Assembly: GCF_016717175.1 (NCBI RefSeq)
Contig: NZ_JADKFZ010000004.1
DNA: 64,000 bases
Origin: Nannocystis sp.
Lineage (GTDB): Bacteria; Myxococcota_A; Polyangia; Nannocystales; Nannocystaceae
Strand: one strand, 5' to 3'
Positions 3,622 through 61,061 of this stretch are shown here, piece by piece. Position numbers and translations under genes: made by a program. How positions within the stretch are numbered: the stretch's first letter is position 1; the number at the start of each line of letters is the position of its first letter. The notes under the pieces were generated by a model. It did not search any database and was not told the DNA's origin. It saw only the letters and a list, made by a program, of their open reading frames with translations.

Positions 3622-3700
3622 GGTGGAAGAGACAGCTGCGGCTGGCCGGAGGGACATGGCGGAAAGGGCAGCTTGGGCTGGCCGGAGGGACATGGCGGGA
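3586..3700. repeat. 3 x 36-bp tandem repeat, each unit containing GGAGGGACATGG
   Basis: Units ggctggccggagggacatggcgg… are repeated three times immediately upstream of and overlapping the TPR gene start. They encode MSLRP-MSLRP-MSLRT when read on the minus strand. Confidence 0.8.
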
Positions 3701-3713
3701 GGGCCAGGTTGGT

Positions 3714-5282
3714 TCAGCGCTGGAGCGCGGCGAGCACGGTCGCGAGCATGGCGTGATCGTCGGTGGACTCGGCGACGTGGTCGACGCGGACGCCGAGGGC
3801 GGTGATCGCCGCGGCGGTGACGGGGCCGAGGGCGAGGACCTTCGCGCGGGTCAGCAGCTCGCGCGCGGCGGGCTCGCCGTGGGCCTCGGCGACGGTGGCG
3901 AGGAAGTGGCGGGCGGTCTTGCCGCTGGCGAAGCAGACGGCGTCGCAGCCCTCGCCGCCGTGCTCGGGCGGGAGCAGCGAGCGGGTCAGCATGGCCGGGA
4001 CGGGCGGGCGGACGACGCGGTAGCCGATGACGAGGTGGTAGCGGCCGCCGGCGGCGGTGATGGCCGCGGCGAGCAGGTCGCGGCCCTCGTCGGCGCGCAC
4101 GTGCAGCCAGCGGCGGGCGAGCATGTCGCGGGCGCGCAGCTCGTCGACCAGGCCCTCGGCGCGGGCCTGGTGGGGGACGATGTCGGGCTGGATGCCGCGC
4201 TCGATGCAGGCGGTGGCGGTGCCGGTGCCGATCGCGGCGACGCACTTGCCGTGGAGGATGCGGACGTCGACGCCGGTGCTGGCGAGGGCGTCGAACCAGG
4301 CGCGTACGCCGTTGGGGCTGGAGAGGATCACGCCGTCGACCTCGCCCAGGTCGCGGACGGCGCGGGTGAGGGCGTCGAGGTCGGCGGGCGGGGCGAGGTC
4401 GAGGCAGGGGAAGGCGACCGCGTCGGCGCCGTGGGCCGCGAGCATGTGCAGCAGCTCGCCGGCCTGCTGGGTGGCGCGGGTGACGACGACGCGGCGGCCG
4501 AACAGCGGGCGGCGCTCGAACCACTCGATCTGGGCCCGGAGGTCGACGACGCTGCCGACGATCATCACGGCGGGCGGGCGGATGCCCTCGGCGTCGACGC
4601 GGTCGGCGAGCTGAGCGAGCGGGGCGACGACGGTGCGCTGGATCCCCCGCGTGCCCCAGCGGATCAGCGCGGCGGGGGTGGCGGGGTCGCGGCCGGCGGC
4701 GATCAGGCGCTCGGCGTTGTCGCGGCAATTCTTGACCGACATCATCAGCACGAGGGTGCCGGTGCCGCGGGCGAGGTGCTCCCAGTCGACGCCGCGGCCG
4801 CCCTTCTCGTAGGCCTCGTAGCCGGAGGCGATGGTGACGCTCGGGCTGTGGTCGCGGTGGGTGACCGGGATGCCTGCGGCCTCGGCGGCGGCGATCGAGG
4901 CGCTGACGCCGGGGACGAACTCGTAGTCGATGCCGGCGGCGCGCAGGACCTGGGCCTCCTCGGCGCCGCGGCCGAAGACCATGGGGTCGCCGCCCTTGAG
5001 GCGGACGACGTGGAGGCCGGCGCCGGCCTTGGCGAGCAGGAGGCGGTGGATCTCGTCCTGGTCGACGACGGGCTGGCCGTGGGCCTCGCTGGCGAAGGGG
5101 CCGTGCGGGCTCTGGGTGCGCTGGTAGAGCTGCACGTCGCGGCGGCAGTGCACGAAGAGCGCGGGGTTGACGAGGTAGTCGGCGACCACCACGTCGGCGC
5201 GGGCGAGGCGGTCGCGCCCGGCGAGGGTCAACAGCTCGGGGTCCCAGGGACCCGCTCCGACGATCGACACGAGGCCGGGCAC
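3714..5282 (-). CDS. cobA-hemD: bifunctional uroporphyrinogen-III C-methyltransferase / uroporphyrinogen-III synthase (CobA-HemD fusion)
   Basis: N-terminal VSIVGAGPWDPELLTL…GGDPMVFGRG is the SUMT/CobA signature. The C-terminal half is HemD-like (…VVVTRATQQAGELL…). 522 aa. Confidence 0.85.
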   Translation of the reverse strand: MPGLVSIVGAGPWDPELLTLAGRDRLARADVVVADYLVNPALFVHCRRDVQLYQRTQSPHGPFASEAHGQPVVDQDEIHRLLLAKAGAGLHVVRLKGGDPMVFGRGAEEAQVLRAAGIDYEFVPGVSASIAAAEAAGIPVTHRDHSPSVTIASGYEAYEKGGRGVDWEHLARGTGTLVLMMSVKNCRDNAERLIAAGRDPATPAALIRWGTRGIQRTVVAPLAQLADRVDAEGIRPPAVMIVGSVVDLRAQIEWFERRPLFGRRVVVTRATQQAGELLHMLAAHGADAVAFPCLDLAPPADLDALTRAVRDLGEVDGVILSSPNGVRAWFDALASTGVDVRILHGKCVAAIGTGTATACIERGIQPDIVPHQARAEGLVDELRARDMLARRWLHVRADEGRDLLAAAITAAGGRYHLVIGYRVVRPPVPAMLTRSLLPPEHGGEGCDAVCFASGKTARHFLATVAEAHGEPAARELLTRAKVLALGPVTAAAITALGVRVDHVAESTDDHAMLATVLAALQR

Positions 5283-57347: not shown

Positions 57348-57367
57348 GCTAGCGGCGCAGCTCCGGG

Positions 57368-57520
57368 GTGGGGCGGGGTTGGACCTGGCTCTCGAGGCAG
57401 GTTCGGCTGGCCTCTGGGACAGGGCGCGTGGGACAGGTGGGGCGGGGCAGGACCTGGCTCTCGAGGCAGGTTCGGCTGGCCTCTGGGACAGGGCGTGTGG
57501 GACAGGTGGGGCGGGGCATG
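57368..57520. repeat. 2.2 x 62-bp tandem repeat immediately upstream of the BatA-like gene
   Basis: ggggcgggg(t/c)(t/a)ggacctggctctcgaggcaggttcggctggcctctgggacagggcg(c/t)gtgggacaggt occurs twice, followed by ggggcggggcatgg. Confidence 0.85.
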
Positions 57521-58944: not shown

Positions 58945-59255
58945 TGCGGTACGGGCTTGAGGACAGGTGCTTCGGGACAGGTTACGGGGCTGTCCTGGAG
59001 GACAGGTGCTTCGGGACAGATTGCGAGGCTGGCCTGGAGGACAGGTGCTTCGGGACAGAGGCCCGCGCCCTCGGCCACGATTGTGACACCAGGGCAACTT
59101 CGGCCGCGCGCCGCCCCTGACGGTGGTGTCGCTGGTGGCAGGATCGCTGCTGGTGCTGGTGGCAGATGCGCCGTGGTACTGTCACTTTCGCCGCTGCTGT
59201 CGCCCGGGTCGGCCGGGCAGGCGAGGAGCACGAGGACGAGGCGACGCGCGAGCAT
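58914..59255 (-). CDS. candidate small lipoprotein with 3 x 12-aa repeats (CPEAPVLQxSxx)
   Basis: MLARRLVLVLLAC is a clean lipoprotein signal. The repeats are encoded by the 36-bp tandem DNA repeats at 58957-59059. No obvious SD. Confidence 0.35.
   Translation of the reverse strand: MLARRLVLVLLACPADPGDSSGESDSTTAHLPPAPAAILPPATPPSGAARGRSCPGVTIVAEGAGLCPEAPVLQASLAICPEAPVLQDSPVTCPEAPVLKPVPHHPARSSSAR
58957..59059. repeat. 3 x 36-bp tandem repeat (GGAGGACAGGTGCTTCGGGACAG core)
   Basis: Read directly from the sequence. Confidence 0.85.
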
Positions 59256-59354: not shown

Positions 59355-59978
59355 TCACGGCGCGGTGAAGATCGCGGCCCAGTAGTAGCCGTGGACCGGC
59401 GCGAGCGCGTCCTTCGCGGTGAAGTCGCCGGCGAAGGCGCCGATGCCGATCTCCTCGAGCTCGCGGGCGCGGAGCTTCCAGCAGCTGCCGGGGTTGTCGG
59501 CCCAGCTCGCGGCGATGTCGGCGGCGGCGGCCAGGTCGCTGCGCTCGGGCTCGCCGTCGTCGAGGACGGTGAAGCCGTCGTTCTCGCCGTAGGTGCTGGC
59601 GGGGTGCTCGACGGCGTCGAGGCGGGTGCCGGTGCTGACGCCGTCGGGGTCGACCTGGCCGACGAACTGGCGGGTCTGCATGTCCTGGCTGTGGAGGCGG
59701 GCGGCGCAGCGCAGGGCCGGGGCGAAGCGGAGCGGCGCGGCGGGCAGGTAGGCCAGGTCGCCGCAGCGGCCGCCCTGGGCGCGCAGGGCGTTGATCTCGG
59801 CGAGGAGGGCGAGCTCGGCGGGGGCGGCCTCCCAGGTCGCCACGGGATCGCAGCGCTCGCTGCTGGGGACCGCGGGCGGCTCGTCGGCGGGCATGTCCGT
59901 CGGCGGGTCGCAGGCCGGGAGCAGCAGGAGGAGCGCGAGGCAGGGGCGCAGCACCGGGTGAGGGTACCAGGACCCCAC
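59355..59978 (-). CDS. CAP-domain (SCP/PR-1-like) lipoprotein
   Basis: Lipobox LLLLPAC. EINALRAQGGRCGDLAY…HSQDM…SCWKLRARELEEIGIGAF are CAP/YkwD-like motifs. Confidence 0.7.
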   Translation of the reverse strand: MGSWYPHPVLRPCLALLLLLPACDPPTDMPADEPPAVPSSERCDPVATWEAAPAELALLAEINALRAQGGRCGDLAYLPAAPLRFAPALRCAARLHSQDMQTRQFVGQVDPDGVSTGTRLDAVEHPASTYGENDGFTVLDDGEPERSDLAAAADIAASWADNPGSCWKLRARELEEIGIGAFAGDFTAKDALAPVHGYYWAAIFTAP

Positions 59979-59989
59979 GTTCCTGGGGC

Positions 59990-60130
59990 GCGTCGATCAC
60001 ACGCGAGGCGCTGGCTCGACACGTGGCGAGCCAGGACCTCGGGGTCGCGTCGATCACACGCGCGAGGCAGGGGCGCAGTACGAGGTGAGGCAGGACCTGG
60101 GGCGTCGATCACACGCGCGAGGCAGGACCC
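59990..60130. promoter_or_regulatory. three ~55-bp imperfect tandem repeats, each containing GTCGATCACACGCG
   Basis: Copies at about 59993, 60049 and 60105 in the region upstream of the CAP-domain gene. The same core occurs twice at 11691-11758. Confidence 0.5.
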
Positions 60131-60140
60131 CGCGCGGGGC

Positions 60141-60179
60141 TTAAAAACATGTCGGGCCTGGGGGGGTCCCAGGCCCGAC
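60141..60179 (-). terminator. rho-independent terminator (12-bp GC stem + T-run on minus strand)
   Basis: Read directly from the sequence. Plus-strand ttaaaaacat precedes the hairpin, i.e. it is a U-run after the hairpin on the minus strand. Confidence 0.6.
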
Positions 60180-60370
60180 GGGGCAGCGGCAGTGTCTCAG
60201 GAGGCGTAAGGGTTAGGTCAAGGTAAGCGAGTGAGAAGCCAAGGTGTAAGCGGAGTAAGCCAAGTCGGGAGCGCGGGCAAATAAGCCAAGGAAAGTTGTG
60301 GAGGCGGGGTTCGTCGCATCCACGTCGACCGAGGTTGCACGCTGTGGTCCACGGGGCATAGCTTCGAGAT
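60141..60370 (-). ncRNA. candidate small non-coding RNA ending in an intrinsic terminator
   Basis: A lower-GC, non-coding stretch (poor codon usage in all frames) with repeated GTAAGC/AAGCCAAGG motifs. A perfect 12-bp-stem hairpin gtcgggcctggg-ggggt-cccaggcccgac (60151-60179) is followed on the minus strand by UGUUUUUAAG. Confidence 0.3.
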
Positions 60371-60482
60371 CATGAGGGATTTTCGCGGGTGCTCGGGACC
60401 GCGAGGGGGCGGCCGGACATCGCTGCCAGGGAGCATCGGGCGGCGGTCTGACGTCGCTGTCAGGGCCGCGATCGGCGAAGCT

Positions 60483-61061
60483 GTGGTGGTGGCTGGCGAC
60501 CTGGTCCGCATCAGCAAGTTCCTCAGCAAGCACTTGCGCCACGACCCGGCGGGGCTGGGGCTGACGCTCGAGGCGGGGGGCTGGGTGCCGGTCGACGGGC
60601 TGCTGGCGGCGTGTGCCCGGCGGGGTGTGGTGATCTCGCGCGAGCTGCTGGCGGAGGTCGTGGCTGGCAGCGACAAGCAGCGCTTCGCCTTCGATGCGGA
60701 GGGGCGGCGGATCCGGGCCAACCAGGGGCACAGCGTCGCGGTCGACCTGCAGCTGCGCCCGCAGACGCCGCCGGCGCGGCTGTTTCATGGCACGACGGCG
60801 GCGAGCCTGCCGGCGATCGAGCGCGAGGGGCTGCGCAAGATGCAGCGGCATCACGTGCACCTGTCGGCGGACGAGGCGACGGCGCGGCGGGTCGGCGGAC
60901 GGCGCGGGCGGGCTGTGCTGCTGGTGATCGACGCGGCGGCGATGCACGCGGCGGGGAGCTTGTTTTATTGCAGCGACAACGGCGTGTGGCTGGTCGAGGC
61001 GGTGGCGCCGGCGTATCTGCGCGTGCACGCGGCGACGGGCGCGGCTACTCGCCCTCGATGA
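60483..61061 (+). CDS. kptA: RNA 2'-phosphotransferase KptA/Tpt1
   Basis: LVRISKFLSKHLRHDP…GGWVPVDGLL…SDKQRFAF…RIRANQGHS…LFHGT…HVHLSADEATARRVG matches E. coli KptA over its full length. GTG 60483 is proposed as the start. The ATG 60372 extension has low GC3 (AGG GAT TTT…). Confidence 0.75.
   Translation: MVVAGDLVRISKFLSKHLRHDPAGLGLTLEAGGWVPVDGLLAACARRGVVISRELLAEVVAGSDKQRFAFDAEGRRIRANQGHSVAVDLQLRPQTPPARLFHGTTAASLPAIEREGLRKMQRHHVHLSADEATARRVGGRRGRAVLLVIDAAAMHAAGSLFYCSDNGVWLVEAVAPAYLRVHAATGAATRPR

Follow-up and report, generated by a model that had tools for sequence, protein, structure and literature searches.

The 64,000-nucleotide stretch of the Nannocystis sp. genome analysed here (GCF_016717175.1, contig NZ_JADKFZ010000004.1; hereafter the window) contains, between a gene for a CAP-domain protein (59355-59978, minus strand; Pfam PF00188) and the plus-strand gene kptA (Pfam PF01885), a low-GC element that is very likely a non-coding RNA gene, read from the minus strand under a sigma-54-type promoter and closed by an intrinsic terminator. 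Together with its homologues, it probably represents a previously undescribed family of small RNAs (sRNAs) with a sigma-54-type promoter in Nannocystis-type myxobacteria, as far as can be judged from sequence. The predicted sRNA is ~183 nt long (60143..60325, minus strand), with its start placed 12 nt after the GC of the -12 element and its 3' end in a U-run. The analysis was carried out in silico and establishes the strand of the element, the order of its modules, their conservation, the enrichment of its repeats and its independence from kptA.

A conserved, terminated element on the minus strand

The window has a G+C content of ~75%, from which the element departs clearly, with a GC fraction of 0.54 at 60200-60299 and of 0.62-0.64 in the adjacent 100-nt intervals, compared to 0.72-0.82 around them. 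This agrees with a first-pass annotation of the sequence, which had singled out a low-GC stretch with repeated motifs and no credible open reading frame (ORF). The repeats greatly exceed chance expectation: both copies of AAGCCAAGG present in the 64 kb lie inside the element (60236 and 60283), compared to 0.16 expected, and 0/100 shuffles reached this count. In the same plus-strand reading, AAGCCAAGT forms a third repeat copy at 60257 and GTAAGC is present three times. Mechanically called ORFs overlap the region, but the sole AUG-started ORF on the RNA strand (34 codons) is not conserved, its AUG being lost in the nearest relative, L081 (GAU to GAC), and a coding element was rejected. The length of the element differs by 17 and 8 nt between close relatives.

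Relatives of the element were found by a genome scan for KptA, a search with the CAP protein and a DNA pattern scan of metagenomes. The nearest KptA relatives come from Nannocystis (L001, 83% identity; L056, 67%), and both loci have the same order of CAP gene, element and kptA, with recognisable repeats and hairpin. The CAP protein search returned 27 likely orthologues, and ten of these, when looked up, led to the syntenic contigs L081-L096, on which the gene order is fabH, ompA-like, kptA, element, CAP, CAP, DUF4159. The metagenome scan yielded 88 loci, of which 14 were accepted by an nhmmer profile based on the 12 sequences obtained first, the remainder being chance matches. Genomes of Nannocystis (L001, L056) and metagenomes together gave 21 distinct full-length homologous sequences, each of them in this neighbourhood, so that the check on conservation in related genomes came out positive. 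They share one module order: upstream site 1, upstream site 2, an A/T patch, TGG-N9-TGCA, a 5' hairpin, the repeated boxes and the terminator. The family profile matches the window at 60325..60142 (E 3.7e-46) as its sole match there, and no further copy of the RNA profile is present within the 64 kb. Exact-protein look-ups of the window FabH and of the Enhygromyxa CAP homologue P0033 gave no match. A divergent case is L160 (positions 1-420 of a low-coverage contig of 1250 nt), in which body, terminator and CAP start are preserved and coding-like, unrelated DNA stands in place of the promoter and the 5' hairpin; the cause is a chimeric assembly or else a rearrangement of the allele.

The Rfam scan that had been proposed as a further check assigned the element to no family, neither at gathering score over the whole window nor at gathering score over 13 homologous loci. 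At a permissive threshold (E up to 10), 59900-60520 yielded only a spurious Prion_pknot match inside kptA. In the literature, we found no paper on sRNAs of Nannocystis.

On the minus strand, the element ends in an intrinsic terminator hairpin (60151..60179) of 12 perfect pairs with a 5-nt loop, followed by the tail AUGUUUUUAA with its U-run at 60143..60147 (AUG-UUUUU-AA). The first-pass annotation had described a textbook terminator with a perfect 12-bp GC stem; the perfect minus-strand stem at 60179..60151 and the U-run stand, but the stem is not all G-C (10/12) and the tail starts with an A (AUGUUUUUAAG). A G+C-rich hairpin thus directly precedes a U-run on the transcribed strand. The terminator has a predicted unpaired probability of 0.0, and in the 12-sequence alignment its consensus stem comprises 11 pairs, three of them with compensatory changes. 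In most of the sequences that extend beyond the terminator, a T-run follows 2-6 nt past the hairpin (weakly in L056), and the hairpin lacks such a run on the plus strand. The RNA body between the two ends consists of 34-44% C, 16-24% G and 10-19% A and is mostly unpaired in the predicted ensemble. Since the U-run is found on the minus strand only, and since the body is C-rich, G-poor and unpaired while the terminator is fully paired, the RNA is assigned to the minus strand.

At the other end, a 5' hairpin (60298..60323, minus strand; GUGGAUGCG-N8-CGCCUCCAC) begins 2 nt after the predicted start, and across the homologues it starts 2-3 nt past the corresponding position (~60325 in the window). 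Every homologue folds such a hairpin, the sequence of which differs between clades. RNAalifold found no consensus for the 5' region of 17 sequences because MAFFT misaligns two clades, and a 12-sequence subset with a specified structure was therefore used. In this alignment, 84% of the cells pair, compared to 22-53% with slid partners, and two pairs are compensatory. The 5' hairpin and the terminator are the only consistent helices. With terminator, predicted promoter and repeat body conserved as a unit in the 21 sequences, the earlier proposal of a terminator-bounded, non-coding minus-strand RNA is upheld.

A predicted sigma-54 promoter with paired upstream sites

Sigma-54 promoters follow the consensus TGGCAC-N5-TTGCW and require an exact GG-N10-GC spacing. 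Upstream of the predicted start, TGGACCACAGCGTGCA (60336..60351, minus strand) reads TGG-N9-TGCA and has both the -24 GG and the -12 GC at precisely this distance. All 20 full-length homologues and the window contain exactly one GG-N9-TGCA per locus, in which the GG and the TGCA are invariant and the interior is variable; no other match to the -24/-12 pattern occurs within the window. Because both the spacing and the conservation pattern fit a -24/-12 element, we predict a sigma-54 promoter at this position.

Two inverted repeats farther upstream, neither assigned to a strand, are candidate binding sites of a sigma-54 activator, that is, a bacterial enhancer-binding protein (bEBP). Site 1 (60448..60463) reads CTGAC-AGCGAC-GTCAG, and its 16-mer with TGACA-N5-GTC is present in 20/20 of the sequences reaching that far, 100-123 nt upstream of the -24 element and also in the loci without kptA. 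Site 2 (60414..60429; CTGGCAGCGATGTCCG in the window, CGGAC-ACCGAC-GTCCG or a variant in relatives) lies downstream of site 1 by 33-34 bp, or by 44 bp in one clade, which in both cases corresponds to whole helical turns. Relative to the T of the -24 element, the two repeats are located at -100..-123 and -66..-80, site 1 has no other exact match within the window, and no second copy of either site occurs there. As bEBP sites typically lie ~80-150 bp from the promoter and are often paired and phased, we infer that both inverted repeats, themselves paired and phased, serve as bEBP sites. Between them and the promoter is an A/T-rich spacer (60362..60385, minus strand; CGAAAATCCCTCATGATCTCGAAG), and all loci have an A/T-rich patch with an ATCTC/TTATCAA core at this position, possibly a bend or a site of the integration host factor (IHF) type.

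Repeated boxes in a mostly unpaired RNA body

Read on the RNA strand, the repeats of the window form three boxes of the type YUGGCUUA (60289..60282, 60263..60256 and 60242..60235), followed by GCUUA or CUUA half-boxes. The RNA body of the window contains three copies of YTGGCTT against 0.11 expected and four of GCTTA against 0.29 expected, neither count being reached in any of 1000 dinucleotide shuffles (0/1000 each). Across the family, the means per RNA are 2.9 full boxes and 5.6 CUUA, compared to ~0.1 and ~1.3 in shuffles, although these sequences are related and their counts not independent. Each RNA has 2-3 full boxes and 2-6 half-boxes, all within the unpaired, G-poor body, in which CUUA, GCUU and UGGCUU are the enriched words.

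Box 1 (60273..60296 with its flanks, core 60289..60282) consists of UUGGCUUA between ACUUUCC and UUUGCCCGC and has a predicted unpaired probability of ~0.6; its GGCUU core is present in 21/21 sequences, and the flanks are kept in most (ACUUUYC-UUGGCUUA-UUUGC). In Box 2 (60247..60263, core 60263..60256), UUGGCUUA is followed by CUCC and a half-box GCUUA, and most sequences keep GAC-YUGGCUUA-CUCCGCUUA. Box 3 (60235..60242) reads UUGGCUUC, and a third YUGGCUUN copy is found in 17/21 sequences. The half-box region (60207..60227; CGCUUAC ... CCUUAC) has CUUA at 60227..60224 and 60210..60207; like the boxes, it is read on the minus strand. Boxes 1 and 2 each lie within a conserved single-stranded segment of ~20 nt. 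The distant members L056, L086, L093 and L096 retain just the 8-nt core, which is seed-like behaviour, and the core has moved in them; in L056, the three boxes are 9 and 12 nt apart, compared to 26 and 21 nt elsewhere. Tandem Repeats Finder (TRF) detected no tandem array over 60180-60330.

The boxes might also act as DNA. Direct repeats with a spacing of 21-26 bp in many members, about two helical turns, and located between two divergently oriented genes could form an array of transcription-factor sites that controls the kptA and CAP promoters, with the hairpin as an incidental palindrome. Such an array would give no rationale for the strand asymmetry (C ~40%, G ~18%) and the avoidance of pairing, which have no meaning in duplex DNA, nor for a conserved -24/-12 element on one side and, on the other, a hairpin with U-run and compensatory changes. 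Moreover, the box spacing is not conserved in distant members and the loss of kptA leaves the element unaffected, and we consider this explanation very improbable.

The element is independent of kptA

The first-pass annotation had read the element as a CsrA-titrating sRNA antisense to the kptA leader or, alternatively, as a regulatory leader of kptA. The element does adjoin kptA, and GGA motifs (caaGGAaag, caGGAgg) do exist in it, but they lie on the plus strand; by its promoter and terminator, the RNA comes from the minus strand, on which they appear as UCC. The RNA strand has 0-3 GGA per RNA compared to 3-9 on the antisense strand, the few being located in the 5' hairpin or the terminator loop, and the single-stranded body of most members has none. 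Rfam returned no match to CsrB, CsrC or an Rsm family even at E up to 10. A CsrA sponge is thus unsupported because its motifs are on the non-transcribed strand, and this candidate was rejected.

The relation to kptA failed on synteny and geometry. Five syntenic loci without kptA (L087, L130, L112, L138 and L176) keep the whole element together with both upstream sites, the stop codon of the ompA-like gene standing directly upstream of the element in these loci, and the element is therefore not a kptA leader; its terminator and promoter are also on the opposite strand. Nor is it antisense to such a leader, because its predicted start (~60325) is ~160 nt away from the likely kptA start (60486) and points away from it, so that the two genes diverge. 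Taken together, there is next to no probability left for the original reading in either form. A scan with an E. coli-type consensus found no plus-strand promoter for a long kptA leader, and a plus-strand TTGCAC-N18-TAGCTT overlapping the -12 element, noticed by eye, was discarded as it is not conserved in L001 or L083.

Some observations concern kptA itself. The Pfam match begins at residue 45 of the ORF starting at ATG 60372, and the start of homologues corresponds roughly to GTG 60486. Just upstream of the kptA start, several loci have a conserved GATCGGCGAAGCT motif (60464-60485). The KptA protein encoded at 60486-61058 is 65-71% identical to proteins of Hymenobacter, cyanobacteria and Armatimonadota, which are thus no more distant than that of Nannocystis sp. 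RBIL2 (67%). Together with the absence of kptA from five otherwise syntenic loci, this gives a patchy pattern that suggests horizontal transfer.

The element and the downstream CAP gene

A second possibility deserves to be taken seriously because the element is on the CAP strand and directly upstream of the CAP genes in all 21 loci: it could be the 5' leader of the CAP-lipoprotein operon, in which sigma-54 transcripts would usually stop at the hairpin and a repeat-bound factor, in the style of TRAP, PyrR or HutP, would decide on read-through. Repeated short motifs in a leader are a hallmark of such protein-mediated attenuation, and in L001, L083, L183 and L160 the U-run is only ~35 nt away from the CAP start codon, with no -35 element evident there. 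However, a -10-like TAYNNT precedes the CAP start codon by 6-9 nt in 20/21 loci and a TTGC(C/G)N -35 element is present in 12/21, which points to a leaderless CAP promoter separate from that of the element. Between terminator and CAP start lie ~35 to ~195 nt, depending on the locus, and in the window three repeats of 55-57 nt are inserted there. No alternative helix that could serve as an antiterminator is conserved according to RNAalifold, and the body is too poor in G to outcompete a stem of 12 bp, 10 of them G-C. The link between element and CAP gene is also not specific, since the whole fabH-ompA-(kptA)-element-CAP-CAP-DUF4159 region is syntenic. An attenuator thus appears unlikely, and the reading as a separate sRNA gene is preferred.

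Regarding the CAP gene, the start of the lipoprotein is likely GTG 59954 (VLRPCLALLLLLPAC, lipobox-like) rather than 59978, with TACCCT 6 nt upstream. The arrangement of TAYNNT, 6-9 nt and start codon in 20/21 loci suggests that the CAP mRNA is leaderless. Three direct repeats of ~55-57 nt (GCGTCGATCACACGCG(CG)AGGCAGG...) occupy 59933-60135, between the sRNA terminator and the -10-like element of the CAP gene. The nearest relatives, L081 and L181, have only one stretch similar to them, and the repeats look like a recent local expansion. Tandem repeats also occur in neighbouring intergenic regions at 57367-57518 (69 nt x 2.2, 96% match) and 58959-59059 (39 nt x 2.6, 93%). Visual comparison shows GGCAGGACCTGG in both the 69-nt unit and the repeat arm at 60087-60104, and the intergenic repeats may belong to one element family.

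A possible mode of action

Put together, these features suggest the following course of events. A bEBP would bind the two inverted repeats ~95 and ~130 nt upstream and switch on RNA polymerase-sigma-54 at the -24/-12 promoter (60351..60336). Transcription would begin near 60325 and end at the hairpin and U-run (60179..60143), producing an RNA of ~183 nt in which a protective hairpin at the 5' end and the terminator hairpin enclose a largely single-stranded body with little G. If the element is indeed a minus-strand, sigma-54-type, terminated RNA gene, the chances are high that its product acts in trans, with the three YUGGCUUA boxes and several GCUUA half-boxes as its working surface. For how it would act, our preferred explanation is Hfq-independent pairing, in which the boxes as 8-nt seeds, with their CU-rich flanks (UUUCCUU, CUCC), would bind mRNA sites of the purine-rich UAAGCCAR or Shine-Dalgarno-like type. 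We favour it tentatively, at somewhat less than an even chance, because the RNA has a conserved, unpaired 8-nt core with CU-rich flanks and belongs to a phylum without detected Hfq.

The boxes could instead titrate a single-strand RNA-binding global regulator of myxobacteria that recognises YUGGCUUA/GCUUA, in a circuit like those of CsrB and CrcZ with a new motif and a new protein. Several copies of the motif per RNA, all exposed in the unpaired body, fit such a sponge, and at larger distances it is the motif core that is conserved and not its position, as in the closely spaced boxes of L056. The number of half-boxes varies in units of 6 nt, as between L001 and L082, which suggests that valency is under selection, and not an exact register of pairing. 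A precedent is CrcZ, a sponge RNA that carries repeated motifs and is driven by an activator (PMC5113210). On the other hand, no candidate protein is encoded beside the element, the neighbours being the exported CAP lipoprotein, kptA, the ompA-like gene and fabH; a specific core of 8 nt, rather long for one RNA-binding domain, has the length typical of a seed; and position-specific conservation over ~20 nt at Boxes 1 and 2 is more typical of pairing regions. Titration of a protein is therefore a possible, less likely mode of action. The half-box regions of L001 (~3700-3740) and L082, in which Boxes 1 and 2 are identical, differ by whole CUUANN hexamers, and this difference looks like a slippage-type copy-number change within the RNA.

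Several points weigh against an activator-controlled sRNA that acts by pairing. The start site, the 3' end and the sigma-54 dependence of the sRNA are predictions, and the 21 sequences are related, so that counts across them are not independent events. Within the window, UAAGCCAR with up to one mismatch occurs at chance level outside the locus, and the six-frame translations contain no activator gene with a GAFTGA or Walker-A signature. The number and spacing of the half-boxes change fast between close relatives, with copy number in 6-nt steps, and this rapid turnover is no less compatible with multivalent binding of a protein than with pairing. Finally, in the subclade of the window, the U-run is only 13 nt from the -10 element of the CAP gene and no -35 element is recognisable, and some functional coupling of the sRNA element to this gene may therefore exist.

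Comparison with known regulatory RNAs

The closest known case is Pxr of Myxococcus xanthus and its relatives, an sRNA of 108 nt with three stem-loops whose gene lies in the nla19 / NADH dehydrogenase intergenic region and which is believed to have a sigma-54 promoter (PMC5568312). No Hfq homologues were detected in myxobacteria (PMC5568312). Like the Nannocystis RNA, the trans-acting Pxr is a myxobacterial sRNA with an apparent sigma-54 promoter, an upstream enhancer-binding site and a terminal stem-loop. In contrast, the Nannocystis RNA is ~183 nt long and mostly unstructured, has YUGGCUUA boxes and lies between the CAP-lipoprotein operon and kptA or ompA. With no sequence in common with Pxr, no three-stem-loop fold and CAP, kptA, ompA and fabH as neighbours, it does not belong to the Pxr family.

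Among the sigma-54-dependent sRNAs of gamma-proteobacteria are Qrr1-4 (activated by LuxO) and GlmY (GlrR/QseF), which are linked to Hfq or RapZ and have a single seed or act as a decoy. The Nannocystis locus resembles these short RNA genes in its -24/-12 promoter, tandem activator sites ~100-140 nt upstream and intrinsic terminator, but has no relation to them in sequence or structure (no Rfam match) and carries repeated boxes. Likewise, the CrcZ promoter of Pseudomonas is RpoN-dependent and CrcZ ends in an intrinsic terminator. CrcZ and CrcY, with the activator CbrB acting at PcrcZ and PcrcY, display several short single-stranded motifs and sequester an RNA-binding regulator, the CrcZ motif being A-rich (AAnAAnAA) and bound by Hfq/Crc (PMC5113210). 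The likeness is one of architecture, with activator-driven expression (predicted here), repeated unpaired motifs and a terminator. The Nannocystis motif, however, is YUGGCUUA/GCUUA, the partner Hfq is absent, and there is neither sequence similarity nor an Rfam match; a body with 10-19% A that is enriched in CUUA, GCUU and UGGCUU is not that of a CrcZ-type sponge. CsrB, RsmY and RsmZ are also terminator-bounded sRNAs with many copies of a short motif, but their defining GGA is essentially absent from the transcribed strand of the Nannocystis element, which matches none of the Rfam models CsrB, CsrC, RsmX, RsmY and RsmZ.

For pairing, RsaE/RoxS, RNAIII of S. aureus and the rhizobial 'cuckoo' anti-Shine-Dalgarno sRNAs are comparable, as C/U-rich RNAs with several seeds that act without Hfq, their motifs (UCCC, CCUCCUCCC) being plain anti-Shine-Dalgarno sequences in hairpin loops. 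The Nannocystis RNA similarly has two or three unpaired copies of one pyrimidine-rich motif, and the known RNAs pair with purine-rich ribosome-binding sites. Its core UUGGCUUA is not an anti-Shine-Dalgarno sequence, however, and lies in an open strand. ToxI-type antitoxin RNAs consist of near-identical tandem repeats of 34-36 nt and are followed by an endoribonuclease toxin gene; they share with the locus the succession of promoter, repeat RNA, intrinsic terminator and protein gene on one strand. The Nannocystis repeats are short and degenerate, and the product of the downstream gene has a CAP domain and a signal sequence of the lipoprotein type. A type III toxin-antitoxin system was rejected, as there is no tandem array by TRF and the downstream product has a CAP domain (PF00188) and an N-terminus with signal peptide and Cys.

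Implications for sRNA regulation in myxobacteria

Pxr is the only functionally studied myxobacterial sRNA that we found in the literature. From another branch of the phylum, the Nannocystis-type genomes, the locus described here adds a second, unrelated family of myxobacterial sRNAs, again with a promoter predicted to be of the sigma-54 type, and all its control parts can be read from the sequence. Three questions thereby become accessible to direct tests: the identity, among the many sigma-54 activators of myxobacteria, of the one that controls an RNA regulator; the way in which sRNAs act in a GC-rich phylum lacking Hfq; and the role of the repeated 8-nt box, either as a seed in several copies or as the site recognised by an RNA-binding protein. 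Should none of these prove unusual, the element would be an ordinary lineage-specific sRNA. Judged by its predicted promoter, the Nannocystis RNA is best filed as a new family within a known kind, the sRNAs with a sigma-54-type promoter.

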